A DNA stretch of 61,335 nt from the NCBI GenBank assembly GCA_030264375.1, contig JASCQW010000032.1, positions 60,526,314 to 60,587,648 on the forward strand, in the 5' to 3' direction. This DNA is from Carcharhinus longimanus. Taxonomy: Eukaryota. Each line of letters begins with the position of its first letter. Positions within the stretch are counted from its first letter, which is position 1. Positions 3,212 to 47,113 of the stretch are shown here, in pieces. A program made the position numbers and the translations under genes. Under the pieces are notes generated by a model. The model was given only the letters and a program-made list of their open reading frames with translations, ran no database searches and was not told the origin of the DNA.

Positions 3212-3546
3212 AGAATCATAGAATCCCTATAGTACAAAAAGAGGCTATTCAACCCATCGAGCCTGCAGCAACAACAATCCCATTGAGGCCCCTATCCCCG
3301 CAAATTATAGGTTTTGATGTATTTACCCTGCTAATCCCCTTAACACTAAGGGGCAATTTAGCATGGCCAATCCACCTAACCCACATATCTTTGGACTTTG
3401 GGAAGTAACCAGAGCACCAGGAGGAAACCCACATAGACACAGGGAAAACATGCAAACTCCACACAGATAGTCATCCAAGGCTGTAATTGAACCTACATCC
3501 CTGGCATTGTGAGACAGCAGTGTTAACCACTGTGCCAGCGTGCCAC
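3212..3546 (-). mobile_element. HE1-like SINE
   Basis: Reverse complement of the SINE head and core, with an (attctatg)-type tail. Confidence 0.85.
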
Positions 3547-5342
3547 TAATAATACGTTCAGTGAGTCGAAATTCCCTTTGATTTGGTGCCAAAAAAACAT
3601 TTAAGATCTTAAAATTAATTAAGTCCTGTTTTAGGCCTCAATTTTAGACAGCTAAGTTATCTGTTTCCTAGTTGTTAGCAAGTGTCATTTTCAGTGCGGT
3701 GTGTTCTTATAAGCCTTTTCTCCTGTGCAATTGTTTTACTGGTGCATTGTTGAGGTTTCTGAGCATGTGCGGATTTGGAATGCAGTCTGTAAGAGAGTAT
3801 TCTGCAAACAAAACCTGCTTTATTAGAGCTCAAGTTTTCATAGTTACTGTTCTTGTTAATTTCATTATTTATTTATATAAAGATCATCATTCTTTAAACA
3901 ATGCATCTGACTACCTTGTTCGTGATCTCAAGTCACAAAGAGAAAATGGCTAGAAAACGTTTTTCAATGTTCAGCATGGCAACACAAGTTTACATCGACG
4001 GAATTTCAAGTTAGCAGGTCAGGTCTGTCGGAGAGTCTGATGAGAGAAATGAAGACTGGGCTGAATACACAGAGAGTGTGCAGTGTTTCTATTTAGCAAA
4101 TAGAATAGATGAGGCAAAGTAGCACTCGATTTTCCTGAGTGTCTGTGGGGCAAAGACACATGAGGCTGGCCATACCATGGAAACCAGGAGATTTCATTTG
4201 CAGATTTAGGTGCTCTGGTCCAAAATCACCATAATCTGAAGTCCTGGGTGATTGTTCAAAGAGTCAAATTTCATAGCCATTTTCAAAAAGCAGATCAATC
4301 AGTGGTTAACTTTATGGTAGAATTATGCCAGCTTTCAGAACATTGATTTCAGAGCAATTTTAGAAGATATGCTCAGAGACAGGTTGGTCTGCGCCATTAA
4401 TGAAAACAACACTCAGCACCGGCTGTTGGGGGAAGATACACTGACTTTTAAGAAAGCTCTGGAAATTTCTCAGGGCATGGAAATGGATGCCTGTAATACT
4501 AGCGATATTAGCAGTTAAAAGGCAGTGCCTAGGTGGGTGCTGCATTAAACACAGAAAGAACCTGCAAACAGGAAGGTAAAGCAGTGGCGTGTTTTAGGTG
4601 TGGCCACACCATGCCAATCAGAGCAAGTTTATAGTTGCTGTTTGTCACAAATACAGCAAGAAAGTGTAGTTAGCAAAAAAAGTGCAGGGGTGTGAAAAGA
4701 AAGGTAAGGGCCAGGCTATAAAATTTTAATTCAAAAAAGTCTCAATCAGCTACATATCATGTCAAAATCTCAGAGCAGGCTGATGTGTAAGTTTGTGACA
4801 TGTTCAATAGCAATTAGGAAGAAGCAGTGCCTATTGCCACAGTTATAGTCGACAATAAATAGATCAAGATGGAGGTTGACACAGGCGCCTCCACACCTCC
4901 AAGTTAACATGGGACTCTAACCAAGCCACCAGCCCTCACTCCAGCAGGGATTAATCTCAGAGTCCATACCTTTGGGACATTGGAAGTTCATATAATAACC
5001 AAGAGCAATAGCATGCCTCCTTATAGTCAAAGAGGTTGAGTTTGCTAGAGTGTGACTGGCTTAGCAAAATTCTGTTGCTCTGAAGTGAGATCAAACAGAA
5101 GCATTTGGACATATTCAAGGATGAACTGGGTATATTGTAAAGTTGTATGTAAATTCTCAGGTTATTCCTCACTTTTTCATGTCCAGAACAGTGCCTTATG
5201 CCATGAGAAGGAAAGGGGAGGAGTTGGAACAGTTGCAAAGGCTTGGGATTCATTGAAACTATTCAGTTTTCTCATTTGGCAGCTTTAATCATTCTCTAAT
5301 CATTCCAGTCCTTAAAAATTATGACTTGGTGTTTATGTGGTG

Positions 5343-6417
5343 AAGTACTTGGGATTTCAAGATAGAAAGCTGGTTAGCAGATAGGAAGCAAAGAGTTGGC
5401 ATGAATGGGTCTTTTTCTGATTGGCAGTCAGTGACTAGTGAGGTTCCGCAAGGATCTGTACCAGGGCCCCAACTATTTACATTATATATTAATGATCTGG
5501 AAGAGCGAACTGCAGATGATACAAAGTTGAATGGGAGGTGAGCTGCAAAAAGGATGCTGAGATGCTTCAGTATGATCTAGACAGGCTAAGTGTGTGGGCA
5601 TCTACATGGCAGACACAGTATAATGTGGATAAATGTGAAGTTAATCACTTTGATAGCACTAACAGGAAGACAGATTATTACTTGAAATTGGTGTAAATTG
5701 AGAAAGGTGGATACTCAGCGAGACCTTGATGTCCTTGTGCATCAGTCGCTGAAAGTGAGCACGCAGGTACAGCTGGCAGTAAAGAAGGCGAATGGTATGT
5801 TGGCCTTCATATTGAGAGGATTTGAATATAGAGGTAGGGATATTTTGCTGCAATCGCATAGCAAATCAGTGAGGCCACACCTGGAGTATTGTGTGTAGTT
5901 TCGCTGTCCTTCTACGAAGAAGGATGTCCTTGTGAGAGAGAGTACAATGAAGGTTTACCAGGCTGATTGCTGGGATGGCAGGCCTGTCATACAAGGAGAC
6001 ACTTAGTTGGTTAAGATTATATTCGCTGAAATTTAGAAGAGAGGGGATCTCATAGAAATTTATAAAATTCGAACAGGGTTAGACAGGTAGATTCAGAATG
6101 TTCCCAATGATGGAGGAGTCCAGAACTAGGGGTTATTGTTTGATGATAAGGGGTAAGCCTTTTAGAACTGAAATGAGGAGAAATGTCTTCATCCAGTGAG
6201 TGGTGCATATATGGAATTCACTACCACCAAATGTAGTTGAGGCCAAAATGTTGTCAGATTTCAAGAATTAGATATAGCTCTAGGGGCTAAAGGGATCAAG
6301 GGATGTAGGGAGAAGGCAGGATCAGGATATTGAATTTGACGATCAACCACGATCAAAATGAATGGCAGAGCAGGACCGAAGAGCCGAATGGCTTATTCCT
6401 GTTTTTAAGTTTCTATG
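5343..6417 (+). mobile_element. 5'-truncated CR1-type LINE nested in the Gypsy RT
   Basis: 'QRDLDVLVHQSLK...KKANGMLAFILRGFEYR...VRPHLEYCV' plus CR1 3' UTR. Splits the Gypsy motif CG-D|YKL. Confidence 0.9.
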
Positions 6418-6681
6418 ACTATAAGCTCACCATTAACCAGGTTTCCAACTTAAATGCTCATCCATCACCCAAGATGGAAGATTTGTTTTCAACTCTTCCG
6501 GGAGGCAAGAAATTTTCAAAACTGGATACAAGCCAGGCATATCAACCACTTTTGCTAGAGGAAGATGCAAAGCAGTACATGACCATCATTACACATAAAG
6601 TGCTGTTCAAGCTTGATTTCTGATATATCCTCCAGTCTGGCAATCTTTCAAAGGATTGCCTATTGCAAGGCATTCCTCAGC

Positions 6682-6971
6682 ATGGGTCACACAGTGATTA
6701 AGACTGCTGTCTCACAGATTGATTCCTGGTTGGGTTACTGTCTGTGCGGAGTCTACACGTTCTCCCCATGTCTGTGTGGATTTCCTCCGGATGCTCTGGT
6801 TTCCTCCCAAAGTCCAAAAGACATGTTGGTTAGGTGCATTGGCCATACTAAATTCTCCCTCCTTGCTCCTAAACAGATATTGGAGTATGGCAACTAGGAC
6901 ATTTTCACGGCAACTTTATTGCAGTGTTAATGTAAGCCTATTTGCAACACTAATAAATACACTTCAACTTT
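6682..6971 (+). mobile_element. HE1-like SINE, second tail type, nested in the Gypsy RT
   Basis: SINE core followed by the tail 'attttcacggcaactttattgcagtgttaatgtaagcc...taataaata'. Confidence 0.85.
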
Positions 6972-8051
6972 AGGTTGCAGTCTACTTGGATGACATCTTA
7001 ATTACAGGAAAGACTGAGGAGCACTTGGATCAAGTTTTTAGAAAGTTTTCAGGGGAGGGATTGCGACTCAAGAGGAGCAAATCCATTTTCCAGGCATAAA
7101 GTGTAGCATATCTAGGCCACAGAATCACTGCACAAGGCATATCTCCTGTGGAAGAGAAAGTTTGAAAGAAGCTTTGGAGGTCAAGAATGTGTCAGAGCTC
7201 AGGTTATCTTTGGGCTTAATGAACTAGTATGGAAAATTTTGTCAGACCTGTCTACTCTGTTGGCTCCACGATACCAACCTCTGCACAAAGAAAGTAAATG
7301 GAAGTGGGGAGTCTATAAAGAAGGTTTTCAAGAACATGGAAGCGCCGCTGTAATTGGGTAATCTGCTAGTCCATTTTGATCCATACAACTTGTCTGTCTT
7401 GCAATGCCTTGCCCTACGGTGTGGGGACGGTATTCTCTCAATTATTGGAGGACAGGTAAAAAGCATCCAGCGATTTTCAACTTCGGATGCTGATAAAAGC
7501 TGAAAGCGAATAGTCACAGTTAGACAATGAGTGTCTAGCTATCGTTTTTTGTAGTGGAAGTATTACATCAGTACCTCCTTGGTCATTTACTCACTATATG
7601 TACTGACCACAAGTCTTTTCAGTGAGTTGAAATGATTCCTCTGGTGGCCTCAGCAATAATACAGCACTGGGTGTTTACACTGCCAGTTATCAGTACAACA
7701 ATTGTGCACAGAACAGGGAAAGACAACACAAATGCATACACGTTGAGTCATCGCCCTTTACCAGATTTGCCATACAAGGTATTGTATCCTCTGGAGAAAG
7801 TTTTATGAGAATTTTGCACATTCTCCAGTAAGTGGGAAGAAATTTAAGCAATTGAGGTCATTTTCTGTCACAAGTTGAAAGATTTCTGATTCAAGGATGG
7901 CCAACTATCATTGAAGGTGTGAAGCATAGAGATGAGTTAAGTGTACAAGATGGATGCATGGAGTGAGGCTCAAGAATGGTCTCTTGGCCATTCACTAGTC
8001 ACGCATACAATTCATGAGGCTCATCCAGATGTGTATGGAATGAAAAGACTA

Positions 8052-8088
8052 GCTTCTCGGCCTTTTGGTTCAGATCAAGTGTAGTATC
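8052..8088 (+). pseudogene. U2 snRNA 5' fragment (about nt 4-40, including the branch-point recognition sequence GTAGTA)
   Basis: gcttctcggccttttggttcagatcaagtgtagtatc matches the recalled vertebrate U2 5' end at 35/37 positions. Confidence 0.9.
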
Positions 8089-8326
8089 GACATGCTGTAC
8101 TTGGTTGAAGTCATTAGGTTACATTTTCATTTCAAATAATTTTTTATAGCGGCATCTCGGTCTTTTGGCTAAGATGCAAATGAGATCAAGCCTTGTAGGA
8201 GAATCTATCGTGTAGATCAAGCCCAAGACAGGAGGTGAGAGCTCTGTCTTGTCAGCTTGAATCTGGAATGTCAACTTGTTGACACTCTGAATTGGATTTG
8301 ATTGGATTGAATTGGAATTAAAAAAA
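8052..8326 (+). mobile_element. Composite U2-headed retroposed element (candidate U2-derived SINE)
   Basis: Two U2 heads (8052-8088, 8152-8175), hairpins, (ATTGG/ATTGA)n tail + A7, flanked by aaaagactagct (8043-8054) and aaaagtcttgct (8323-8334). Confidence 0.7.
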
Positions 8327-8977
8327 GTCTTGCTGGGTCATACGTATAGTGGCCTCGATCTGGACTTGAAGGTAAAGTCCTGTTCCACTTCACATAAAGC
8401 AGAAGTTGGTACTATTTCTTCCTTGGGAGTGGCTAGATTGTCTGGACTGCACATGGACTTTGTAGTACCTTCCATGAACCACATGTTGAGTGTTGTAGAC
8501 ATGCATTCAAAATGGTTGGAAGGACATGAATATTACAGCTTCTGTGACAATTGAGAAGCAACGTCAATTTTTTTTTTAAAACAGTTCATGGTCTACCACA
8601 TTAGCTTGTTTCGAATAACAGTACTAGGTTTACAAATTATTAAAAGAATTCATGCAAAAGACCAGGATACATCTCAGTACATGCGTACTGAGCCATTTCA
8701 GCTGGCTTCAAATGGTCTAGCAGAGAGAACTGCTCAAACGCTAAAGGGGTTATTGAAGAGCGCCTTTGATGCTCCATCACCAGGCAAAATTTCATTCATG
8801 GCAGGGAATTGCAAAAATGGCACCATAGGCTTCTAGTGCCTTACCCAATGCTTAATACTAATGTACCTCAGCATGTAGAGGTGCTGTCTGGAAAGGGCAA
8901 ATTTAAAGAGAAATAAAACAAAAAACACTGGTAGACTTATACCATGGAGTCAAATAGAAAGTCTGATAATGAATGGC

Positions 8978-9185
8978 AATTGATTGTTACATGTATTAGT
9001 ATACAGTGAAAAGTTTTTTTTTTGTGCACTATACAAAGCATACCAGACATAGAAAAGAATATAGTGTTCCAGTCGTAGCTAGGGTGTAGAGAAAGACCTC
9101 TACTTAATATGAGATAGGTCCATTCAGAAGTCTGGAAAGAAACTGTTCTTAAGTCAGCTGGTATATGTCCTCAGGCTTTTCTAAG
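8978..9185 (-). mobile_element. LINE 3' end fragment (Rex1/Babar-like; family uncertain)
   Basis: Same sequence family as 31742-32052 ('acatgtatt..tacagtgaaaagt'). Confidence 0.6.
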
Positions 9186-11492: not shown

Positions 11493-11534
11493 TCAATCTT
11501 GATGAGGTTTCTCTGGAATAACTTTACACTCATA
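11493..11534 (-). CDS. INSIG2: INSIG2 last coding exon: YECKVIPEKPHQD*
   Basis: Acceptor ctgattgcag|TAT, INSIG2-type YECKVI tail, TGA at 11495-11493. Total CDS is 684 nt = 227 aa + stop. Confidence 0.95.
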   Translation of the reverse strand, partial: YECKVIPEKPHQD

Positions 11535-11689
11535 CTGCAATCAGAAAGAAAATAAGGTGGTCATTGTTCATAGGTTGTAGGACATCCAAAGAATATGAAT
11601 TACAAACATTGCCTTGTTTCTTCACTTGTAAAATCATCCCTAAAGTCAACTGGAATATTGAAGCACAGAACAAGAAAATGAATGCAAAA

Positions 11690-11869
11690 GTGAAATGCAG
11701 CAGATGCTAAGAATCTGAAATGAAAACAGAAAACATTGGAAATAGTCAGCAGGTCATGCAGCATCTGGGGATATTTCTGATGAAGAGTCACCAAACTAAA
11801 ACATTACCTCAACCTCTCCCCACATATGTTGCCTGACTTGCTGATTATTTCCAGCATTTTCTGTTTTCA
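11690..11869. mobile_element. Palindromic Penelope-derived/MITE-like repeat with a decayed hammerhead core
   Basis: ~50-bp inverted arms 11721-11770 / 11818-11869, CTGATGA at 11777-11783. Half-copies at ~38605-38672, ~57935-58005, ~60205-60290. Confidence 0.7.
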
Positions 11870-12209
11870 CAAAAACAGAAACTAGCACATTAATGTAATC
11901 CCTTCCATAGAGTCCACCACTTACCCCATTGTGGATCTGAAGCACCTCAATCTAAATAGTCCAATTACAAAAGTTACTAAAACATGCAGAAATGCACATC
12001 ATTTACCTTTCCTCACATTTCCATTTTGAAATCTGATTTGCTAGAATCTCCTAAACATATTACCCAATCGCTCCATTCCTTTATGGATATGTATTCTGTA
12101 TGATGGGATGTAGCAATTCGTATTAGTGATTTGGTTAAAAGAATTAAGAGTTCCTTTATTCATGTTTACTCAAGATGATAGTTAATTAGAAAGCAAAGTG
12201 TTGTTTGTG

Positions 12210-12950
12210 CAAGAAGTTGCAATGGATCACTGTGAGACTAAGTGAATGGGCAAAACTATACAGGTGCAGTCCAATGTAGGAAAGTGTGGAAGTATTCATT
12301 CTAGTCCAAAAAAGACAGATCAGAATATCTTCTTAATGGCAACAATTAGGAACACAGATGCTTAAATCCTATGCACACCAAACATAAAAGCTAGTGCACA
12401 AGTACTAAAAGTAAAAAAAAGTTAATGGAATGTTGACCTTTATTTTAAGGAATTGGAATTCAAAAGTGGTCAGGTCCCACTGGGAGCACATCATTCAGCT
12501 TCAGGCATTGAATCTCAGGAAACATATATTGGTCTTCTTAGAGGTATAATGCATATTTACCTGAATGCCTTAGCTTAGATTTCCAGGGCAGATTGCATGA
12601 ATGTGGTTTGTATTGGAGGGTTGAGGGGTTGTAGAATGAGCTGATAAAATTGAAGTGATTCTGTAGGTCACACAGAGGAACAATATCTCTGGTGGTACAG
12701 ATGAAACAAACATGCCAAATCAAATTAGCCCTAGGACATGCAGGAGTGTAAACACACAACAGATTGCAAAAATCTGGAACTCATTTCTGCAAAATGCTAG
12801 TCAATTAAAATTTTCAAACTCTGTTAGATAAAGGTACCAAGGGGTGTGGAGCAAAGGGAAATAAATGGAGGTGCAGATGAGCCATGATCTAAATGAATGC
12901 AGAACAGGCTTGAAGGACTGGATTGTCTACTGCTGTTAGCATTTTTCTAT
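12210..12950 (+). mobile_element. Old, highly decayed CR1-type LINE
   Basis: Remnants 'ctaagtgaatgggcaaaa', 'aatggaatgttgacctttatt', 'agccatgatctaaatgaatg'. Confidence 0.7.
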
Positions 12951-13957
12951 ATTGGCCATTTCAGTCAACAGCTGTCCATCCAAGGCTCCAATTTCATTTC
13001 AATTCCTAGCTTTTGTTGAGATTCCACACGCCCTCTGTTCTGGTCGTGGTAACACTTGTGGGAAGTTGAAGGAGCGGGGGTAAGGAATTCTTATATGTAA
13101 AGTCCCTTGAGGAGAGTTTATTTTCAATATGTGACAGGGAGGGCAAGAGGAATTTGTTCTCTTATCATTCAAAGTGATGCTACACAGACTACATCAATTC
13201 CCCAGGGGCAGATAGTGCCATGGAGCAATACCTCCATGGACTTCACAGAATTCACACGTGCTATCATGAGAAAACCTGTACATGCCACACAAGTAGTGGC
13301 CTGCAGAATTATGTCAATGAGTCTTCCTCCTTGTTGGCAAAAACTAGCTTGACTAGATCTACAAGGCAAGAACAATTAACTTCTAAGTGAAAGTTGCGTA
13401 GATGGGTTTCTTTGCTTGCCTATCTACAGCAAGCACACTTTAGCAGTTTGATTGGTTGTGAAGAGCTAAATAGTACCATATAACTGAAAGTGCATATTAA
13501 TGAAGAAAACTAACACTTAAGGGTGAAAGAATCTCTTTACTATTCTTGGTACTTATACTCAAAATTCATACTATTCCACATACTGCCTGTGGGATACACA
13601 AGTGTTGTCTGTACTATGACATTAGTTGTTCTAGCTGCCTGGGATGGGGCAGTTCTAATGGCTATGTACATTCATCAACTTCATTTCAATTATAAAGGAA
13701 AGGCAGGCAGGTTACACAAAATGACAGAATTTTGAAAGCATTTTTCAGTACAAAGATAGAAATTCATTTATTATTCATTAAAGCATTTCTGAGGCTTCTT
13801 GCTGCATAAATATATATTTTTTTTTAAAAAGAACCATAAATATATTCAATCATTAAAATGGTTAAGGGCCAAATTTTATAGATAATTTTCATCTGGGAAT
13901 TTGGGAAGCACGGAGAGGTTATCATCAAATATCCATATAAAAAAAGTGTTTACCTAC

Positions 13958-14057
13958 CATTGCTAACTGGCGTCCTATATTTCCCATTGTTATTCCACCA
14001 GCAAAAAATATACAAGGTAACCAAGATCGAACATAAAGGAAATCTGGAGATGTATAT
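13958..14057 (-). CDS. INSIG2: INSIG2 fourth coding exon (100 nt): [33 protein letters not shown]
   Basis: Acceptor ttttacag|A and donor ATG|GTAGGT, with phase consistent. Peptide matches the INSIG2 TM6 region. Confidence 0.97.
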
Positions 14058-14761
14058 CTGTAAAACAAAGTGCAATAGATAAAATTTGTTTCCCAATATA
14101 CAGATATCTCATTAAGTCAAAACTTTAATATAACCTCATGTAAAATGTATTAAGCTTTCAGTGCACTAACCGATTCTGCTCTTTATGAATTACTAAATTT
14201 GAAATTGAAATCAAGTCTATAACTGATATAAACCCATATGCACAAGAGCAGCAACTTTCAACCAAGTGAATTAAACATGGGAAAGCATTTCATAATAAAC
14301 ACGGAATTCAGACTGACAGTTAAAAATATAAACATAACATTTGCATATATTGAGATACAGAATTATTATGGGCGCATCTAAACATACAGATTGCAAGAAC
14401 TTACGTGGTTTTAAAACCCAAGAAAACTATATAAACTATTTAGTGTTTGTTTAATAAATTAAGAAAATTTTCATCTAATTGTGAAGAATTACTGTACATC
14501 TGAATTAAGTAGATGCAGCAGATCCCAGATTCAGTGCATGTGATCTGCAAATTTACCTGCTTAATCCATTTACTTTCAGATTTTTGTTCATTCATCCATT
14601 TCTTTGTAATTATTGTGTTCTTTACCTATTCCTCAGTAAGACATCTTAGTGTCCTATTATGGTTCAGATTAGAAACTCCAAAGTGCTTTATGAAGCAAGC
14701 CTGAATTATAAGTTTTGCATTTTGAATTTGGCTCGGATAAGCATAATCACATCACTTCAGG

Positions 14762-15430
14762 TGTGATTCAAAAGACCCACTAGGGAACTTTTACCAAAAA
14801 AAGTTTATTTAAGAATATAGTCAACGTGTATGAAAAGAAAATTAGCAATAACTTCTAACAATTACAAACAATAACAAAGTAAACCACATATATAAGTTGT
14901 CCCATTCAAACCAACCTTCATAAACAACCCTTTAAACAGGTTCAACGCAGCATAGACTAACGCTCACGTGATACTGGGATTAAGGCTATTAGTTGAACTC
15001 TGCAGCCAAATGCATTTGAGGCTCAGAACAGTTTGAAGACAAGTCAGCTCCATAAAACACCAGAGACATTCTAGTCCAGCCCCCAATAGCAGCAGATTTT
15101 CACCCTTCAGAAAAAAGCCTTGCTTTCAGCTAACCAACAGAATTTCCAAAATAACAGTGAGGGGGGAGAAACTTCTTTTTAGCTTGCTGTCCCTTCTAAA
15201 ACTAAAACCCACCGCTCCAAACTGAAAAAACTGTCTAACAACACAGGATCGTGAAACTAATCCAGAATGTAAACAAACAACCCCATTTAAGGAGCAATGA
15301 AAGGACATTTGGTGGGAATTTGGCAGCAGAGAGATCAGATAGGGCTGTGAGCTAAGAAACCACTAAAGCTGTGAGCTTCAGAAATCATGTTTTTAAAAAA
15401 CCCTTTCTTAAAAGGTCCACTGACATCACA
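14762..15430 (-). mobile_element. Putative solo LTR
   Basis: Bounded by inverted termini TGTGAT...ATCACA with a minus-strand AATAAA near 14803. No clear TSD. Confidence 0.45.
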
Positions 15431-15688
15431 GTCCTAAAAATAAAAAAAGTTTCTTTTTTCCCTTAAGTTTTCTGCAAATCTATTTTCCGAGTTTAATCCT
15501 GGATTTTGATTTAATTTCATATTGACCCTAAAAGTTAAAAATTTGCTTCCTGGTTGTGCAGACCGAGTCTGCTTTAATCAGGTTAACGACACTGTATTTG
15601 CTTTGTTCACCAATTTATTGAGAAATTGTTTTGAATTTAAAGGACATTTCCATTTTTTTCCTCCCTCAATAACTCAATGACTTATAGG

Positions 15689-17061
15689 TTTCCTAGTATT
15701 TTGTCTGCCACTTATCTGTCCTTTTTTTCCCTTTCCCAGGAGATTGAGAGATTGTAGGGAGTCTGTAAGGAAGTTGTGAGGCTAGCTTTAAGGTTTAGCT
15801 GGTCATCTCCTGTCCATCAGTTTTGTGTAATTTGTAAAGTAATTCAGAACATAGCTTCTGGAAGAAGTTTAAAAAGTACTGTACTGTAATTTATGTTAAA
15901 GTAAAAATTTGCTGGTGGCTATTGTACAACAGCATGGGAAATGAAAGTGTTCAGGATATTTCTTGTATCTTAATTAGCAAATAAGGCACTGGTTAAAATT
16001 ATATACACTAGCCCACATTGAGAAACTAACTCTTCGCAAATGAGAGTTAAAATATGTGGTATTAAATTCACGTGACAAATGTATAACATAGATTTTGCAG
16101 TGCTATTGATAGGAAAACTCTCAGCTTTCATTGTCATTATACCACAAACTGACAGCACCTTCCTGACTCTGCTTGAGTGTTGAATAGTGTGGATTTACTC
16201 AAGTTTCTGTAAGTAGGTCTACTGTCCTCTGTAGGATGCATTGTGAAGGTTCCATCATCTGCAATTTCCATTGTTATCATGATTTGACAAAAATTTCCAA
16301 CTCTTACATATGCAATGAAGTATAACTGGGTGTTTAAATGGGACACTAACTACAAAAGTAATGGATAGGATAGAGGTGGAGAGACTCTTCCTGCTCAAAA
16401 AAGACAGTAGGATTAGGGGGCACAGCCTCAAGATAAAGGGGGGGCGGTTTAGAACGGAGTTGAGGAGGAACTTCTTCACTCAAAGGGTGGNNNNNNNNNN
16501 NNNNNNNNNNNNNNNNNNNNNNNNNNNNNNNNNNNNNNNNNNNNNNNNNNNNNNNNNNNNNNNNNNNNNNNNNNNNNNNNNNNNNNNNNNCATGATCTTA
16601 TTGAATGGCGGGGCAGGCTCGAAGGGCCAGATGGCCTACTCCTGCTCCTATTTCTTATGTTTATGTTTATGTTTAAACATGCTTAACAGACCTGGATGGG
16701 CAACTTCATCTTGTCAATTTTCCCCCCAGTGAAAGCTGTCTGGTAGATCTCACCAATAGCAAAACATTTTCCCATGTTGTTGCACAATAGTCACAAGCAA
16801 ATTTTTACTTTAATATGAATTACAGTACAGTACTTTTTAAACTTCTTCCAGAAGCAATGTTCTGAATTACTTTTTAAATTACACAAAACTGATGGACAGG
16901 AGACAACCAGCTAGATCTTAAAGCTAGCCTCAACATGACGGATAGTCCATTTTGATGAGACACTTCTTTGCGGACTCCTTACAACCATATAATCTCCCAG
17001 GAAGGAAAACAAACCAGAAAAAAACTGAGGACAGATAAATGGGGGACAAAATACTGAGAAA
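15689..17061. repeat. Long imperfect inverted repeat, arms ~15689-15943 and ~16765-17061
   Basis: 'agcttctggaagaagtttaaaaagtactgtactgtaatt' is mirrored by 'aattacagtacagtactttttaaacttcttccagaagc'. Similarity extends over more than 250 bp. Confidence 0.9.
16345..16672 (+). mobile_element. CR1-type LINE 3' end (with gap)
   Basis: 'RIRGHSLKIKGGRFRTELRRNFFTQRV' and a (ttatgt)n tail. Confidence 0.85.
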
Positions 17062-18589
17062 TTCCTTTCCACTCACCTCAGGCAATCAAAACAAGTCCAA
17101 GAGACTAAATGGAACTGTTATTCAAAAACTCAAATACTGAAAGACAGTTATGCTGTGCATATGATCAATGGAATATGCACAACTGTCCCCATCAATAAAA
17201 TTAAGTGCAATCTTTTTAGAAAGAATTCATATTTGCATTGAACCCCATATAATACCTTCCACCAAAATGTATTTGATATTCTATAGAGTTATATCAAAAT
17301 TATACAAATTTTATTTTCTGCATGCAGGACAGTTTTGTAATTTTATTATAGAAATGAGCCAGTGATGTAAAAAATTAAGCAGGATTAAATATTTCAAAAT
17401 ATGCAAACAAAATAGATTCTGCATCCATTAATTTTATACTAAGTGGTTAACTGCAATTACAGGCATCTATAAAGCAGAAAATCTCTCATGCAAGTTTTTT
17501 TGTTTGCAAAATGTGGAGACTTTAAAAAAATTTAGCATAACTTTCTACTCATTCTGCTGCCCAAGGCCAGTTTATTTCACCCTTTTTCAAATGGTCAGAA
17601 TTTTATTGAAATATGCAGCCAGAAAAGCTTTGAAGATTTACTCTTCTACGGTCAAAAAACTTCAAAGCTTCCAAATTCTCTTATTCATTATTAAATATAA
17701 TGAAGCAATTAAATTACCAGAAATACCTGCAAAGCTCCATAATAACACAGCACAAAGCTATATTATACATATGCATCTAGGGACCTGACCTTCAGTGCCA
17801 AGTTCTGGAAAGGCAACTTGAGGCAAGTTCTTTATTAAAATAAATGACACTGTTGAATTTAATTCTTGGTTCTCAATAATTTTTATAAAATCTGTTTGGC
17901 TGATCACAGTCAGTTGAAAATCAAGTGTATCATTGAGCTATGGCTTCTAGAAAAAATTAGAGAAGTAATAAAATGCAAGTGGTCACTTCATATTCTTATT
18001 GCATTCATGGTTGTAAAACCAAGGCAATAACCTTTCGATCTCAATTTATTTTCTGTTGCTAAATGCGGCCAACACAAATAATTGTTTTTAAACTGCCAAG
18101 GAAACAGCATCTCCACGGTTCAAAACATTTTGCTAAACTAAAGTCCCTTCCTTGGGTCAAACTAGAATAGACAACTGCCAACTACCCTAACTGAGGAGTC
18201 ACATTCCACTTAGTTAAAATCCAACACAGTTCACATGTTGGCAAAAAATGACTACTTCACATCTGGACATTACTTGATGTAAGGACTTCATTCCTTGCAG
18301 TCCTTCAGCAAGCTCTATGAAGAAGTTTTTACATTTCTTAGTTAATATGTTGCTTGCATTCTGATAGTTGAGGGATTTAGTAGTTTTGATGATTTTCACT
18401 AAATTGACCCTTATTGATGCTAAAAGGAAAGTCTTCAGCTTAAAAACTTAAGTACTCTTGCAACAATATTTATAACATAAGGTGAGAGGGAAAGATAGAA
18501 AAACATTTTGCTTGCATTTAGAAACAAGGCTGTGATTCTATTTGGCACTCAATGATATCATAAATCATGACACCAAAGTTTGAGGGTGT

Positions 18590-19195
18590 TTTTATTGTTT
18601 CACAGAATGTGGGTGTTGCTGGCTATGTCAGATTTTGTGCCCATTCTAAATTGTCATTGGGAAGGTGGTGATGAGCCACCTTTTTGAATTGTGTGTCCAT
18701 GTGATGTTGGTACACTCTCAGTGCTATTAAGAAAGGGAATTCCAGGATTTTGACGCAGTGACAAAGGAACAGTAATGTAGTTCCAAATCAGTATGGTGTG
18801 TTGCTTGGAGAGGAATTTGCAATTGCTGACCTTATCACGGGTTTGGAAGATGCTAGCAAAGGAGACGTGATGAGTTACTGCAATGCATCTTGTATATGGT
18901 AATCAGTGCTGCCACTGTACTTCAGTGATGGAGGGAGTGAATGCTTAAGATGTGCCATAGGGTACCATTCAAGCAGACTAACTTTTCCAGCATGATGCAG
19001 AGTTTGAGTATTGTTTGAGCTGCACTCATCCAAACAAGTGGAGAGTATTCCAACACATTCCTGACTTTTGCTTTGTGATGGTGAACAGGCTTTGGGGAGT
19101 CAGGAGATGATTTACATATTGCAGACTTCCCAGCCTCTTACCTGCTTATGTAGCCACAGTACGTAGCTGGTCGAGTTTAGTTTATGGTCAATGGT
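18590..19195 (-). mobile_element. LINE 3' fragment, same family as 1125-2720
   Basis: Shared 'gaaggtggtgatgagcc...ttccaggattttgac'. Confidence 0.75.
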
Positions 19196-19654
19196 TCCCC
19201 CACCACCAGCCCCCCTTCAAGGTTATGTTGTTGCTGCTCAGAAGAATACATTACTGCACATATTCCACTCCATCTACTGGATTCAATCATTCCAGGGAGA
19301 AGTTGGAATGTTCCAGAGAAAACAGACCTCATGATCTCTGTAAACCCAGGCTTGCATCTGCCCACTAGAGAATGGACTATGTATGCATGTTCATTACAAA
19401 TATTTTCTTAATTGCTCAAGTGTAACCTAATATGTATGGCTTATAAATTATTTGGCCTTGGACCACAACGCTAAAAATACTCTTTATATTGGTTTTAATG
19501 AAACCAATTTCATTTTTAATGAATACAATTCAGTTTTATATAATACTCAATGAGAGATAAAAGAAATATTAACCAAACATTGATACCCACAGTAAATGCG
19601 ACTTTATGAAAAGCACCAAAACTGCCCCAGTCAGATAAATCTATTTATACTTAC

Positions 19655-19821
19655 TGGTAAACACCATTGTAGACTAAAAGCTGAGTGACCAACGTAGCAA
19701 GAAATGCAATTCCTATTCCCAGTCCAAAGCCACTTCGAGATCTATCAAAAGTCCACCACAATCCAATGGAAAGTGCTGCTAATGTAAGGGAGAGCTGCAT
19801 ATTGTTGGCAAAATCCACCTT
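19655..19821 (-). CDS. INSIG2: INSIG2 third coding exon (167 nt): [55 protein letters not shown](Q)
   Basis: Acceptor tttcatag|AAG and donor CA|GTAAGT. Contains the conserved WWTFDRSR motif. Confidence 0.97.
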
Positions 19822-20642
19822 CTATGAAAGACTTGTTAAGGTTTGAGACAAAGACAGCATTTCATAGAATCACTGAATCCTTACAGTCAAAAAGTGGTTA
19901 TTCGACCCCTTGAGCCTGCACAATTCCACCCAGGCCCTATCCCTGTAACCCTACATATTTACCCTAATTCCTTTGATACTAAAGGGCAATTTATCATAGC
20001 CAATTAACCTAATCCGCATGTCTTTGGACTGTGGGAGGAAACCAGAGCACCCAGAGGAAACCCATGCAGACATGGAGAGAACATGCAAACTACACACAGA
20101 CAGTTGCCTGAGGCTGGAAGTGATCCCGGGTCTCTGACACTGAGGGGTAGCAGTGCTAACCACTGTACCACCATACTGCGCAACATTGAATTTTTTTCTC
20201 AACTATATCCAAGAAAATTTATCCTAAAGATAAAATTGTTTTGCAAGTTTATCAACTATCCTGTAACTCAAACTCCAACAAAACCATGTTTTCATCACAT
20301 GGTGAACTGTGATTTTGTAGAAGTAACGTTCTGAAGAATTTCTACACTGAAATTCACCTCATGATTAATTCTGCAGGCAATAATTTTTTGAAATTAATTC
20401 ATACTAAATTTAGTTTCTTGACACACATGGACTCGTAANNNNNNNNNNNNNNNNNNNNNNNNNNNNNNNNNNNNNNNNNNNNNNNNNNNNNNNNNNNNNN
20501 NNNNNNNNNNNNNNNNNNNNNNNNNNNNNNNNNNNNNNACACATGGACTCGTAAGAGCTTAAAAAAATCCTGCATTCTTAGCTATAAATGAACTTTAAAA
20601 AATAAAATCTATATTTTGTGGTTTGTTAAACAAAGAGGATAC
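19822..20642 (-). other. INSIG2: U12-type (minor spliceosome) GT-AG intron of INSIG2
   Basis: 5' splice site GTATCCTC, branch sequence CCTTAAC at 19841-19835 close to the 3' AG, and no long polypyrimidine tract. Confidence 0.9.
19862..20182 (-). mobile_element. HE1-like SINE inside the U12 intron
   Basis: Full head, core and tail on the minus strand. Confidence 0.88.
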
Positions 20643-20767
20643 AGCACTAGCATGGTTTATGCCAACAAAGACTGCCACACAACGCATTACACTGGACCAT
20701 TCCCTTTTGAATTTGTGTGGTTCTCCCAGATGGCTGTCAATGCATGGGTAAAGCAAACCAATCACAG
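20643..20767 (-). CDS. INSIG2: INSIG2 second coding exon (125 nt): [42 protein letters not shown]
   Basis: Acceptor ttcctgcag|CT is phase-compatible with the previous exon. Peptide is nearly identical to INSIG2. Followed by the donor GTATCCTC. Confidence 0.97.
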
Positions 20768-22054
20768 CTGCAGGAACAGAATAACAGCATTGATTAGTAA
20801 GACCTAAAATAGCATTTGTTTTGCATTTGAGGCCGTTGGGTTACTTCAGTTCAACAGCCCTGACCAAACAAAACAACAAAAAAGTTGTTTCAGCAAGCAT
20901 AAACCCAGCTAACACAATGCCATATATAAAATTTATGACAAATACATAATACTAAGTGGATAAACTCTTGAAAAAACTTTCCAGCCATTCAATTTCATAA
21001 GGTTTTTCAAGTTTAGGATTCATAAGTGTTACAAATGGACAAATATACCAAAGAAACAAATTTGCCTCCTATTATGGGCAAAGGCAGTTTTGCATTTTTT
21101 TCATGTTCATTTTTCATGTTGTTCTTTGCAATTTTGTTCCCAATTAAAATGTAACAAACCCAACATCCAATCAAGTCTCCCATTTCTCTGTTGACAATGA
21201 ACAAATGATAAATATCTGCCACATCTCTAATAGCAGCATTGGGGAAAGAAGACTGCCTGCTAATTCACTTTGTTCTTTTTCCTTCCTGTGAAAGCCCTTC
21301 ATCTCATTCAATTGCTCCATTATACCAAAAACATGAATGCTATCATCCTACAAACCAGTTATGTATTGATGGACCATTGCAGCTTTCTCAAGAGGACATT
21401 TTAAAAGCCTGTATAAAATTGTGGAGCTACTATACAACTTCCAAAATCCCCATATGTTTAGATCTTTATAACTTAGATTAAACAATAAAACAATTACAAT
21501 TTCATGTTAGAATCACAAATTTGTTCACTGCTCAAAGTTCATTAACTGCAATTTATACAAATTACTTAAAGCAGACTGTAATCTCATGTACACTGCAATT
21601 AAATCACTATCAAAAAATATTTTAAAAGTAATACTCATTGTGGCAAAATGTGGTGGTAATATGCTCAAGGAAAATTCCAACTAACTTTTTTCATTAGTTA
21701 GTGTCAATCTAATGTTGCAGCACAATAAGTTAGCTCAGTAATTTAAAATTTTCAAAATTAACCAGATGTTTTTAACATCACTATCAGTGCTTTCATATAT
21801 TTAAATTATTCAGCAAGTCACAAAGGAGTTAAGTTAAATAAATGCTGCAACTGATCCATATGACAAAAAAATGAGTTTCTGGCTTAACTGCTTCTTTTTA
21901 TTTTTGGCATTTATGTTATATCTGGAAATTTGATCAATGGCTCTCATCTTAGTGTCTTTTCTCTTTAAAAGAAATGTACATATCTTTTAGTAAGTGCAGC
22001 AGAGCAGAGATATTTGCAAAGGAAAAACTTATTTAAGTATATCCGACCCCATAA

Positions 22055-23325
22055 ACACATACAAATATGCAAAATAGGAGCAGAAGCAGACCATTCAGCC
22101 CCTTAGGACTGCTCGGTCATTCATTAAGATCATGGCTGTTCTGTTTGTTTCAAATTCCATATTCCCATCTACCCCTGATAACCTTTAATTCCCTTGCTTA
22201 ACAAGAATCTACCCACCTCCACCTAAAAAATTTTCAAAACCCCACCTTCAGAAGCAGAGTGCCCCAGAGTGACACAAGAGAAAAGAAAAATTCTCCTTGC
22301 CTCTGTTCTAAAAGGGTGACCCCTAATTTTAAAAACAGTGCCCCTTAGTTCTGGATTCACCCACAAGAGGAAACATCTTTTCCATGTCCAGCTTGTCAAG
22401 ACCATTCAGGATCTCGTGTACTTCAATTAAGTCAGTCTGCACTCAGTGCCAGAGGAAACAAGCTGTTCAACCTTCCCTCAAAGGAGGACCTATTCATTCC
22501 AGTTATCAATACAGTAAACCTCCTGTGAACTACCTCGAATGCGTTTACATCTTTCCTTAAATTGGACCGAAATCGCATGCAATATTTGAGATGTAGTCTC
22601 ACCAATGCCCTACATAACCAAAGTTCAACATCCTTACTTTTATGTTCAATTACATCTTTAGGATAGTATTCCACTGGCCTTCTTAATTACTTGTACCTGC
22701 ATAATAATCATCTGTGACTGACTTGCGAGAACACCTAGGATCCCTTTGCACCTCAGAATTCTGTAGTCATTCTCTGTTTAATATTCTTCCTGACAAAGCA
22801 AACATCACACATTATACGCCATCTGCTAGACTTTTGTCCCCTTACCCTATGTCTACCCATCTGCACCCTCCTCATCTTCATCTCATACTTTCCTACCTAC
22901 ATTTGTGTCATCTGCAAATTTAGCAACCATGCCTTTGCACCCTTGAAGTTATTGATATAAATTGTAAAAAGGTTGATGACCCCTGTGAGACTCCAATCAT
23001 TACATTTTGCCAATCAATTTATGAATGCTATTTTCTGCTAATCAATCTTTTACCATGCTAATATGTTATCCCTCTACAGCAAGAGCTTGTACTTTCTGCA
23101 GTAAGTTTTGCTGTGGCATCTTATCAAATGCCTTCTGGAAATCTAAGTATGGTACATCTACAGGCTCCCCGTTTTCCATGGTGCACGTTACTCCTTCAAA
23201 GAACTCCTATAAATTGGTTAGACACTATTTCCCTTTTGCAAAACCACACTGACTTTTCCCAATTACCTTGGGTCTTTCCAAGTGCTCAGCTATAATCTCA
23301 AATTATTGATTCTAATACTTCCCCT
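22055..23325 (-). mobile_element. CR1-type LINE fragment
   Basis: 'LCRALVRLHLKYC', 'DFQKAFDK' remnant, CR1 3' UTR. Confidence 0.85.
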
Positions 23326-24109
23326 ACGACACAAATGAAAAATATCGTTTTACTCATTTTAATGTCTTCAAACACTTGCCAAACATGGTTACCAACAGGT
23401 GTTCAAACATCATGCTGAAATAAGGCAGAAGCTTCCACTGTGCACTGTGGCATTAATCATCTCACACACACACACACATCCAGCTTCCATTGCTATTTGC
23501 AAGAAATTTTTTTAAAAAACCCATAATTAGTAAATCGAAGTTCCAATTAACTTAATTGGTTTATAAATAAGTGGAGGTCAAGGAGATTTGGACTAATCTC
23601 AACTCCATTAAGCATAACATAACAACACTAATTAAATCATACAACCATATGGACAGTGATGTCCCAATAACTAGGGCAGAGCACAATAACAAGCACAGAG
23701 CAAGAATAATTTCCTTACAGTCTTTACTCATGACCAGAACGAGTTAATAGTGTCTTATAAAGGTAGGTAAAAATGAAGACTATTCAATCTGACAAGTTTA
23801 CAATATAAAGGAAGGCTATTTATAAATAGCTACTTAAAAAAATCCTACCATCACTTTACTCTAGACCTCAAAAGATCTCTCACTTGCTGCGTCACAACAC
23901 AGGTGCTCACACATAAAAGCTTTATTTTGCCCTTAATTTTCTTTGGAATAATGATTATGAAACAATAGCTTAAACTGCTGAAATGCATGTGCTTGTACGA
24001 TAAGTTTTATTCGAGTGAAACTTATTTTCTTGCACAATCTTTGAAAACATCACTATAGGCATTTCCTAAACTCCAATATCACAAAACAGAACATGTTGTG
24101 ATCACTTAC

Positions 24110-24359
24110 CCGATGCTGTACCACAACATGGCGGAACCCACCAAGCAGAAGAGAAAATGCTGGCAATGACATCTGGAGGAAAAAGAGTAACATTTCTTTG
24201 TACCTGCAACAAGTTCAATACCAGTGCTAAGAACACACCAATGGAAAACAGGACCACGCCCCGAACAAGCAAGTTCATATTCTGATTTGTGATGGCAGAA
24301 AGGTAGGGGCCATGCCTGATCTGCACAGTTGTGGCTTTGCTTTTTTCCTCCTCCGCCAT
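24110..24359 (-). CDS. INSIG2: INSIG2 first coding exon (83 codons + 1 nt): MAEEEKSK...[67 protein letters not shown]
   Basis: Translation closely matches the vertebrate INSIG2 N-terminus (short N-terminus, [23 protein letters not shown]). Ends at donor G|GTAAGT (24109-24104). Confidence 0.97.
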
Positions 24360-24463
24360 AGAGATAAGGGTATTTAAGTATCTGTCTTCTCAGTCGTTGG
24401 CTGTTATCAGTGGAGCTCCATTTAGCTGGATCGACGTTCACCATTTAATACATTGTGTGCAAC
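24360..24463 (-). other. INSIG2: 5' UTR part of the first coding exon of INSIG2
   Basis: Acceptor ttccttgtag|G at 24463, with an alternative tctttcag| at 24473. Confidence 0.6.
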
Positions 24464-30728: not shown

Positions 30729-31590
30729 ATAGAAAATAGAAGTAGAAGTAAGCCAATCAGCCCTTTGCGCTTGCTCCACCATTTCATTATGATTGTGGCT
30801 GATCATCAAATTTGATATTCTGATCACCCCACCCCCCCATGGCACAGTGAGTGCCTCACAGTGCCAGGGACCCGGTTCAATTCCCTGCTTGGGTCACTTT
30901 CTGTGTGGAGTCTGCATGTTCTCCTTGTGTCTGCATAGGTTTCCTCTGGGTGCTCCAGTTCCCTCCCACGTCTGAAAGACGTGCTGGTTAGGTGCATTGG
31001 CCATGATAAATTCTCCCTCAGTGTACCCGAAGAGGCGCCGTGTGTGGCGCCAAGGGGATTTTCACAGTAACTTTGTTGCACTGTTAATGGAAGCCTACTT
31101 CTGACACTAATTTAAAAAACTTTAAGCTTCAAACATATCCGTTGATCCCTTTAGCCCCAAGAGCTTTATCTAATTTCTACTTGAAACCACACAACGTTTT
31201 GGCTTCATTTACTTTCCGCGGTAGTGAATTCCATGCATTCACCACTCTCTGGGTGAAGAAATTTCTCCTCATTTCAGTTCTAAAAGGTTTACCCTTATCC
31301 TCAAATTTTGACCCCTAGTTCTGGACTCCCCCACCATTGATAACATTCTTTCTGAATCTACCCTATCTAACTCTGTTCGAATTTTATAAGTTTCTATGAG
31401 ATCCCCTCTCACTCTTCGACGCAACAATGAATATAATTCTAACTGATCTCTCTTCATATGACAGGCCTGCCATCCCAGGAATCAGCCTGGTAAACCTTCA
31501 CTGTATTCCTTCAATAGCAAGGATATCCTTCCTCAGATAAGGACACCAAAACTGCACATAATACTCCAGGTGTGGCCTCACCAACACCCT
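30729..31590 (-). mobile_element. CR1-type LINE 3' part, interrupted by a SINE
   Basis: 'RRVRGDLIETYKI...DRVDSERM'. Confidence 0.85.
30840..31125 (+). mobile_element. HE1-like SINE, second tail type
   Basis: Core plus 'ggggattttcacagtaactt...gacactaat'. Confidence 0.85.
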
Positions 31591-34774: not shown

Positions 34775-35945
34775 CCATTCCTGCTTGGGAGTCTCTGCTG
34801 CATTTTCTGCAGAGCAAGACACTCCTGAGAAGATGCATGATTTGCTGCCTCTATTTTATTTGGGCCCTTTTCTTGGTCAGCTGAGCTTTTTGTTTCTTTT
34901 CATTTCCTCCAAAACTCTTCCAGATGTTCAGCTTCCAGATGCCAAGGCCATCGACAACTGTCTTCCAGTTGTTAGTGACAATATCCGTCATCTTCATAAC
35001 TCACTTACAGATAGAAGTTTCAACACCAGATTAAAGTCCAACAGGTTTATTTGGAATCTAGAGCTTTTGGAGGGTTCCTCCTTCATCAGGTGAGCAAACT
35101 GAGCCAGCATCTCCATATCATCACTTACAAATGTCCTTGTAGCAGAATAATGAATGCACAAGAGTTCATGACCCAGTGGCCAGCTCGCCATACAGGGGGT
35201 GCTTGGTACATGGCAATTATCCATCCAATGAACGTGGCTGAGTCAGTGCAGATGTTGCAGGCTTAGCAATTAATGTATACTGATGGAATTAACATCTGCA
35301 TCTTTGAATTGGGGAGATTGCCCTCTGCCAAGAGATATCAAGGATACGTCTGAGACAGAAAAGGTGACAACTGTTCAGTCTTTTTTTCTCTGTTGAGCAT
35401 ATGCAGTCCAGATCTTACTCCAACAGTTGGGATGTAGGCTAGGCAGACTTGCAGTTTGGTCCTCTCAGTCAGTTTGCTATTGTTCCACACACACTTACTC
35501 ACTTGAAGATAACAGCTAAAGCTTTTGTGATTCATGAGTTGATTTCAGCATCAAGTGACAGATTCTGATAATTATAGAGCCTATAAATAAGTATATTTAT
35601 AGGGTCTATAATCAGCAAAAATCTGTTGCTTGATGTTGAAATCAACACATGAATTACAAAAGCTGCAGCTGTTATATATAGTCAACATCCTCCTCGGTCA
35701 CTTTGTCAATGCTGATTGATGGTAATGTCCTGGACCATGACACTTATCTTCCTAATGCTGATGGTCAACCCTTTACAGGCTTCAGAGAGTCAGTGCATTT
35801 GCCAGTAAAGGTGTTCCTTGATACGAGATGCCAGTGTGTCATAGTTAGTGTAAAGCAGCTCTCTGGTGAGGAGTTGGTGCACTTTTGTCTTGTATCTCAG
35901 GTGAACAAGGCCGAACAGATTTCCATCAGTTCTGGTATGTAATTA
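34775..35945 (-). mobile_element. Decayed RTE-type LINE
   Basis: 'VWNNSKLTERTKLQV' and a plus-strand terminal 'cataccagaactgatggaaatctgttc' remnant typical of RTE RT. Confidence 0.6.
35005..35120 (-). mobile_element. Penelope-like terminal repeat with a hammerhead relic
   Basis: Minus strand reads ctcac-CTGATGA-a-ggagg/cctcc-AAAA-gctc. Confidence 0.7.
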
Positions 35946-41640: not shown

Positions 41641-41950
41641 TCTTGAAAGGCTGCACCCATTTTGTTCTAAAGGACATTACTTTCCCCATGAAAATTTGCA
41701 CTGTTTTGCCAAAACTTAGTCCATTATGCCATTTGTGACAGCTAATAACACTCACGGACAACCAAAAAGGAGGAAGCATGACAATAAGTTGATAAATGCG
41801 TTGTAGCATCCATCCATTCCTCAGAATAGATGGAGACACTACTGATATGTTGAATGTCTTTTACTGATAATTTTAAATTAACCTCTTACAGAGAGTGAAA
41901 AAACTGCCTCATTTGCAAAAAAATAAAGACCCTGATATGATTTTAAGTGT

Positions 41951-42022
41951 AGTAGCATGGTTGAGTGGTCTAAGGCACTGGATTAAAATCCCAATTTCTG
42001 GCTTTGAATCCCACCACTGCCA
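41951..42022 (+). pseudogene. Decayed tRNA-Leu (AAG/TAG-type) pseudogene
   Basis: agtagcatggttgagtggtctaaggcactggattaa...tttgaatcccaccactgcca aligns to recalled tRNA-Leu GGTAGCGTGGCCGAGCGGTCTAAGGCGCTGGATTAAG...TTCGAATCCCACCGCTGCCA, with CpG decay and a variable-arm deletion. Confidence 0.8.
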
Positions 42023-46814: not shown

Positions 46815-47113
46815 GGGTGGCATAGTGGCACAGTGGTTAGCACTGCTGCCTCATAGCGCTAGGGACCCGGGTTTAATTCCGTCCTCGGGTCACTGTCTGT
46901 GTGGACTTTACATGTTCTCCCTGTGTCTGTATGGGTTTCCTCCGGGTGCTCCAGTTTCCTCCCACAGCCCAAAGATATGCTGGTTGGGTTGATTGCCCAT
47001 GCTAAATTGTTCCTTAGTGTTAGGGGGATGTCAGGAGGATTAGTAGGCTAAATATGTGGCATTAAGGGGATAGGGCAGGGAGAAATTATTGTCAGTGCAG
47101 ACTTGATGGGCCA
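46815..47113 (+). mobile_element. HE1-like SINE
   Basis: Head and core present. Confidence 0.88.

Follow-up and report, generated by a model that had tools for sequence, protein, structure and literature searches.

A stretch of 61,335 nucleotides from Carcharhinus longimanus (contig JASCQW010000032.1), called the window below, was analysed. In it an insert of 280 nt lies between two 12-bp near-copies of one short sequence, inside a decayed Gypsy-type pol region. The composite U2-headed retro-insertion at 8043-8334 is real. The features of the insert, of its host and of the most abundant repeat of the window are as follows.

3900 to 9000 (approximate), + strand: host element, the heavily decayed coding region of a Gypsy-type LTR retrotransposon interrupted by numerous stops and frameshifts and containing two further nested repeats
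8043 to 8054, + strand: left copy of the target-site duplication, whose last bases overlap U2 nt 4-6 (microhomology)
8049 to 8088, + strand: U2 head 1, U2 snRNA nt 1-40, securely nt 4-40 (cmscan, RF00004)
8092 to 8120, + strand: U2-antisense arm, the ungapped partner of 8059-8087 (U2 nt 11-39), from which a loop of 4 nt separates it
8121 to 8149, + strand: AT-rich linker, 14% GC, ending in TAG
8152 to 8177, + strand: U2 head 2, U2 nt 4-27, with an extended stem I fold, a T4 run at 8163-8166 and a perfect A-box-like word at 8166-8176
8178 to 8287, + strand: body, with a 10-nt word from U2 nt 24-31 present twice (8183-8192 and 8214-8223) and stem-loops at 8213-8265 and 8269-8284
8288 to 8326, + strand: 3' tail of degenerate pentamers followed by A7, the last A's being common to the right duplication
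8323 to 8334, + strand: right copy of the target-site duplication, running on into the host pol reading
684-884, 3334-3546, 6732-6860, 19978-20174, 30852-31024, 41265-41412 and 46817-47029: copies of the abundant SINE

The two copies of the duplication were identical at 10 of 12 positions, and a score of at least 10 was reached by chance in 132 of 19,163 random pairings of a left site with an A-run. Both copies stand in the same codon phase, reading K-R-L-A on the left and K-S-L-A on the right, 280 nt apart. The 12-bp near-duplication with two mismatches, starting at an A-run, which an earlier note on this DNA had described, was thereby borne out. The 5' boundary of the insert is ambiguous by a few bases because U2 nt 4-6 coincide with the end of the left copy. 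One A-tailed RNA was copied into the Gypsy-type host, and the 12-bp duplication begins in an A-run. The order in the copied RNA was U2 5' fragment, antisense arm, linker, second U2 fragment, body, pentamers and oligo(A). The duplication, the A-tail, the two U2 heads and about 210 nt of non-U2 sequence agree with the proposal that the insert is a composite and not a plain U2 pseudogene.

The host was characterised from its protein domains. Upstream of the insert and on the same strand, Pfam RVT_1 was found in 6962-7399 (E 2.1e-5) and RT_RNaseH in 7400-7781 (E 1.2e-4), and the Gypsy label is our assumption from the order of the domains. Downstream, the lead for an integrase is a match of 8321-8548 to an atlas cluster in which 12% of the members carry rve. 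The insert had been said to split a Gypsy integrase zinc finger; the decayed pol host with reverse transcriptase and RNase H was upheld, but the flanking motif, which we take to be the integrase zinc finger, gave no match in Pfam or PDB. Full-length relatives of the host element were searched and none was found. Repeats at 5340-6420 and 6680-6970 are nested in the same element, presumably a fragment of a CR1-like LINE and, at the second site, the abundant SINE of the window.

The wider neighbourhood has an INSIG2-like gene on the minus strand at 11500-24390 (127 bits to the PDB INSIG2 chain), with exons near 24350, 20756, 19761, 14047 and 11534. As the gene is on the minus strand, the insert lies about 3.2 kb beyond its stop codon. 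A GC-richer stretch at about 29.8-30.3 kb may be the INSIG2 promoter region. The abundant SINE has at least seven copies, which are 75-83% identical to the copy at 46817, and presumably resembles the shark V-SINE/HE1. An inverted repeat of 163 bp (91%), 39256-39418 and 41743-41902, brackets about 2.3 kb with a remnant of an RT-type RNase H, and such inverted ends are unexpected for a Gypsy-type element. Another of 165 bp (92%), 15777-15941 and 16768-16932, surrounds an assembly gap. Upstream of a fragment at about 42.1-43.7 kb that we take to be RTE-like, a tRNA-like stretch was noticed by eye at 41950-42020, where ARAGORN and Rfam call no tRNA. Long, near-perfect palindromes at 348-429 and 35537-35645 gave spurious matches to miRNA families far below the gathering scores.

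The U2 content of the insert was analysed with cmscan. The Rfam U2 model (RF00004) matched 8049-8195 with 47.1 bits against a gathering score of 46 (E 2.8e-6). The high-confidence alignment was limited to model nt 1-40, that is window 8049-8088, where 37 of 40 positions were identical to the printed consensus by eye. The claim that U2 from about nt 4 to 40 stands at the start of the insert is in accordance with this result. Head 1 ends two bases beyond the Keno/Utopia insertion site at nt 38|39. Head 2 (8152-8175), as had been claimed, matched U2 consensus nt 4-27 at 22 of 24 positions when compared by eye; it matched head 1 at 20 of 24, while the best match elsewhere in the window was 16 of 24. 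The predicted stem of head 2 has pair probabilities of 0.89-0.94, but its fold z is only -0.80. The four differences of the heads from U2 within nt 4-40, examined by eye for both heads, either preserve the predicted pairing or lie within an internal loop. Judged from the sequence, head 2 with changes at 2 of 24 positions is not demonstrably older than head 1 with 2 of 37. A degenerate full-length U2 gene was considered and rejected, as the alignment confidence beyond nt 40 was mostly low and no match to the Sm site was seen. The insert passes the Rfam U2 gathering score, and therefore such copies would be annotated as U2 genes. For a stingray, PMC10787021 gives 690 spliceosomal snRNA annotations.

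Between the heads an AT-rich spacer of about 60 nt had been described. This was correct for 8121-8149 with 14% GC, but not for 8089-8120, which has 41% GC and is antisense to head 1. The arm and head 1 pair at 25 of 29 positions, through 16 Watson-Crick and 9 G-U pairs with 4 mismatches, and 15 of the pairs form a contiguous core. The hairpin is predicted for the plus strand only (z -3.24, against +0.70 for the minus strand), and the whole-insert fold (z -2.51) is largely due to it. With head 1 held fixed, an equally long stem was obtained from 2 of 5,000 random window segments and 2 of 5,000 shuffles, and an equally low energy from 56 and 18 of 5,000 respectively. The score of the arm segment, a feature noticed after the fact and in one copy, was matched by 1 of 4,000 window controls and 0 of 4,000 shuffles; on Watson-Crick pairs only, it was matched by 16 and 14 of 4,000. 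Compared with an exact inverted copy, the arm is changed at 13 of its 29 sites, whereas head 1 has remained close to U2; simple joint decay of the two therefore does not account for the difference. All five core differences of the arm keep the pairing (P 0.0002-0.014 by mutation model), and the G-U bias over the whole 29 nt is marginal (9 of 10 transitions, P 0.05). At 12598-12631, a stretch rich in G and T pairs with head 1 better than the arm does (26.5 against 19; 16 Watson-Crick and 15 G-U pairs), which is probably compositional chance and cautions against the arm statistic. The predicted pairing of the arm covers the GUAGUA of U2, which we take to be the branch-point-binding sequence. The linker 8121-8149 had no significant match elsewhere in the window, and its end, a T-run and TAG just 5' of head 2, resembles a 3' splice site or, alternatively, a TATA-like upstream block for Pol III.

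Two further descriptions of the insert did not hold. The element had been called possibly dimeric; the alignment of spacer with body was at chance level, 651 of 2,000 shuffles scoring as well. A model of two homologous monomers was rejected, as the unit-to-unit alignment was carried by the head and the halves share only the head. The body had also been called structured, for which the support is weak, since the fold z was -1.02 for 8176-8320 and -1.74 for 8218-8295, not better than shuffles. That a non-U2 body follows head 2 was confirmed apart from weak U2 similarity, and no other Rfam family was found. A tRNA-derived head is not supported, as neither ARAGORN nor Rfam detected a tRNA in the insert. 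The 280-nt insert has no coding remnant, and no frame has a credible relative. The tail of pentamer repeats and A7 was seen as described, with about seven pentamers at 8288-8322; these are degenerate, and Tandem Repeats Finder did not list them at score 50.

Words resembling a Pol III promoter were observed in head 2 and the body. The patterns used, TRGYNNARNNG for the A-box and GWTCRANNC for the B-box, are what we take to be the consensus patterns, and by them the words at 8166 and 8215 were called. Both 10-nt body words are perfect B-box-like words and match U2 nt 25-31. Among 51 A-words and 16 B-words on either strand of the window, 8166/8215 is the sole perfect pair at a spacing of 25-60 nt, and a B-word fell in range in 178 of 20,000 body shuffles. 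The A- and B-box-like words stem from U2 but reach a perfect match only with the help of bases foreign to it, and head 1 has neither. Against a promoter reading, the U2 sequence already supplies most of each word, and a T4 run is present at 8163-8166. According to SINEBase, such boxes give many false positives and are only an indication (PMC3531059). The pair, noticed after the fact and in one copy, is therefore offered as a lead to a putative Pol III promoter and not as a finding.

Other copies of the insert were searched for. None was found in the 59 kb of sequenced window (blastn with word size 7; local alignment at chance), where another SINE is present in at least seven copies against one U2-headed insert. 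The crocodilian genome is about 2.2 Gb in size. The single copy in the window is weak evidence because SINEU-1, the crocodilian element with about 7,700 copies (PMC4494074), averages about one per 290 kb. The 71-codon antisense frame, one of six frames, had no relative in the 90% protein set, which is a set without usable eukaryotic repeats. Two matches to this frame among 1.84 billion representatives were rejected, being tandem-repeat proteins with best single-domain E values of 1.1e4 and 2.8e5. Pattern scans of bacterial and archaeal genomes returned 0 and 0 matches, and plasmids and phages gave no match to the insert, all in collections without usable eukaryotic repeats. A partner LINE with the same 3' end as the insert was not found. 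The RTE-like fragment has no detectable sequence in common with the body. In the literature no U2-headed family outside crocodilians was found, and no U2-derived SINE of cartilaginous fishes was among the matches listed, in a coverage that leaves most subscription papers outside. A Repbase or Dfam entry for a U2-headed element may already exist.

From these results, the insert is probably one copy of a non-autonomous retroposon that resembles SINEU, bears a U2 head and was mobilised by a LINE of the Tx1 or RTE type. A LINE enzyme acting in trans, most likely of the Tx1 clade and next of RTE, would have nicked the target and primed on the A-tail. The core unit would be 8151-8326, and the 5' module 8049-8150 may have been added in a later round, when the reverse transcriptase changed template to nt 40 of U2 snRNA, the route described for the heads of SINEU-1 and SINEU-2. 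The antisense arm may be part of the design of the element RNA, either by pairing with the U2 head of the same molecule or by keeping cellular U2 in position for the switch. Such multi-step assembly would need transcribed intermediates and therefore a family of copies. The subfamilies of SINEU-1 arose by repeated 5' addition of U1 and U2 pieces (PMC4494074). Tx1 is the group to which SINEU has been attributed, and LTR retrotransposons are the preferred targets of two Tx1 families in crocodilians (PMC4494074). The whale shark is reported without full LINE1 but with Tx1-like repeats (PMC8455134). The 12-bp duplication fits the ranges of the L1 clade (7-18) and RTE (7-15) better than that of L2 (1-9 bp), the latter range being the one found in most platypus chimeras (PMC4476161).

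Among other explanations, an unlikely one is a one-off chimeric retrocopy. An A-tailed RNA, such as a SINE, a LINE 3' end or a host transcript in which an old U2 fragment was already present, would have undergone one switch onto U2 at nt 40, and the hairpin would come from fold-back copying or partly from chance. The single copy in the 59 kb of sequenced window and the non-significant structure of the body agree with this, and chimeras of snRNA with LINE or SINE sequence, involving L1, L2 and RTE in lizard and platypus, appear in PMC4476161, where they are shown for U6. It requires, however, two independent U2 captures 100 nt apart in one locus, and also two further copies of the U2 word and the antisense arm beside the junction (1 in 4,000). 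Of the 58 human U2 retrocopies characterised in Table 1 of PMC4476161, 57 show plain 3' truncation and 1 is joined to a repeat; because single U2-repeat chimeras are so rare in human, two U2 captures in one event are unlikely.

A bolder proposal, which we regard as quite doubtful, is that a SINE family derived from U2 evolved independently outside crocodilians and turned pieces of U2 into functional parts. Stem I with one change would serve as the Pol III A-box and the duplicated U2 word as a B-box at the right spacing. The G-U-rich antisense arm would pair with U2 nt 11-39, masking the branch-point-binding sequence or docking cellular U2 for fresh capture of a head at nt 40. If it is true, it offers testable answers on how snRNA-headed SINEs are transcribed and how snRNA heads are gained repeatedly.

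Derivation from a non-autonomous Keno- or Utopia-type element is decidedly improbable. Here a master copy in a U2 gene at nt 38|39 would give a transcript from the U2 promoter, U2(1-40)-element-poly(A), and an off-target copy of it would have landed at this locus. Transcription without an internal promoter and the hairpin in cis would both be accounted for, head 1 breaks off at nt 40, two bases away from the site common to Keno and Utopia, and some Utopia families insert outside U2 genes (PMC4640811). The 3' flank, however, is the Gypsy-type host and not U2 nt 39 onward, and no coding remnant is present; the short head does not require Keno because plain U2 retrocopies are mostly 3'-truncated too. 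Very improbable indeed is a stack of separate insertions (for example the core 8151-8326 and a tailless U2 copy with flank) or a tRNA SINE with its 5' end replaced by U2 at the A-box: an A/T-rich linker does precede head 2 and the A- and B-box-like words have tRNA-like spacing, but a single duplication brackets the whole insert, ARAGORN and Rfam give no tRNA signal, and the B-box-like words match U2 nt 25-31.

The locus is most likely a SINEU-like element with two unusual features, as judged from one copy. SINEU was described as crocodilian-only, and how it is transcribed was left open in its description (PMC4494074). If another vertebrate lineage had a second such family, snRNA-headed retroposons would have arisen repeatedly or be of much greater age. 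The antisense arm and the A/B-box-like pair provide two concrete mechanisms that can be tested. If single-copy, the insert would be only an unusual chimeric pseudogene.

The insert was compared with known systems. As in Keno (Tx1 clade) and Utopia, the U2 sequence at the 5' junction ends near the nt 38|39 target site, as given in PMC4640811 and PMC6136364; unlike them, the insert has no RT/endonuclease frame and no U2 nt 39 onward at its 3' side, and does not lie in a U2 gene. It shares a 3'-truncated U2 5' fragment and a flanking duplication with the tailless and chimeric snRNA retropseudogenes of PMC4476161 and PMC5322556, but those are mostly tailless single fragments, whereas two heads, a body and a tail are present here. 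The tRNA-derived SINEs of sharks and rays (HE1/V-SINE, SacSINE1, SINE2-1_CM), as described in PMC3747384, are likewise short and non-autonomous with 3' short repeats and A/B-box-like words, but the present insert has a U2-derived head, no tRNA match and no similarity to the abundant SINE of the window. A strict SINE, as defined by SINEBase (PMC3531059), is at least 60% identical to tRNA, 5S or 7SL along a 60-nt stretch and has an internal Pol III promoter and at least 100 copies; Rfam and ARAGORN found no such identity to tRNA, 5S or 7SL in the insert.

The comparison with SINEU-1 (PMC4494074) revealed a U2-derived 5' head, more than one snRNA-derived piece and a non-snRNA 3' body in both, as well as an A-tail or poly(A), a length below 500 bp and a duplication of about 10-12 bp. 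An internal oligo-T and insertion into another transposon are also common to the two, and for neither was a LINE with a matching 3' end found (PMC4494074). The SINEU features present here are thus the U1/U2 head, a non-coding length of 280 nt (below 500 bp), a short A7 and a 12-bp duplication. Unlike SINEU-1, the insert was found in Carcharhinus longimanus and not in a crocodilian, and it has pentamer repeats 5' of the A-tail. It also has the antisense-U2 arm and the A/B-box-like words, whereas the main text of PMC4494074 reports no promoter-like sequence and no antisense arm. Its target is a Gypsy-type pol region and not Mariner-N4 as in SINEU-1, -2 and -3, a difference in which one copy cannot measure preference. 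Rfam found no match to U1 in the insert and nothing that could be assigned with confidence to the 3' part of U2, which argues against SINEU-2 and SINEU-3. The insert, with its different target, is not filed in the named crocodilian families; it is likened to SINEU by its structure, and not by body homology or copy number, and by this analogy it would work in the same manner.
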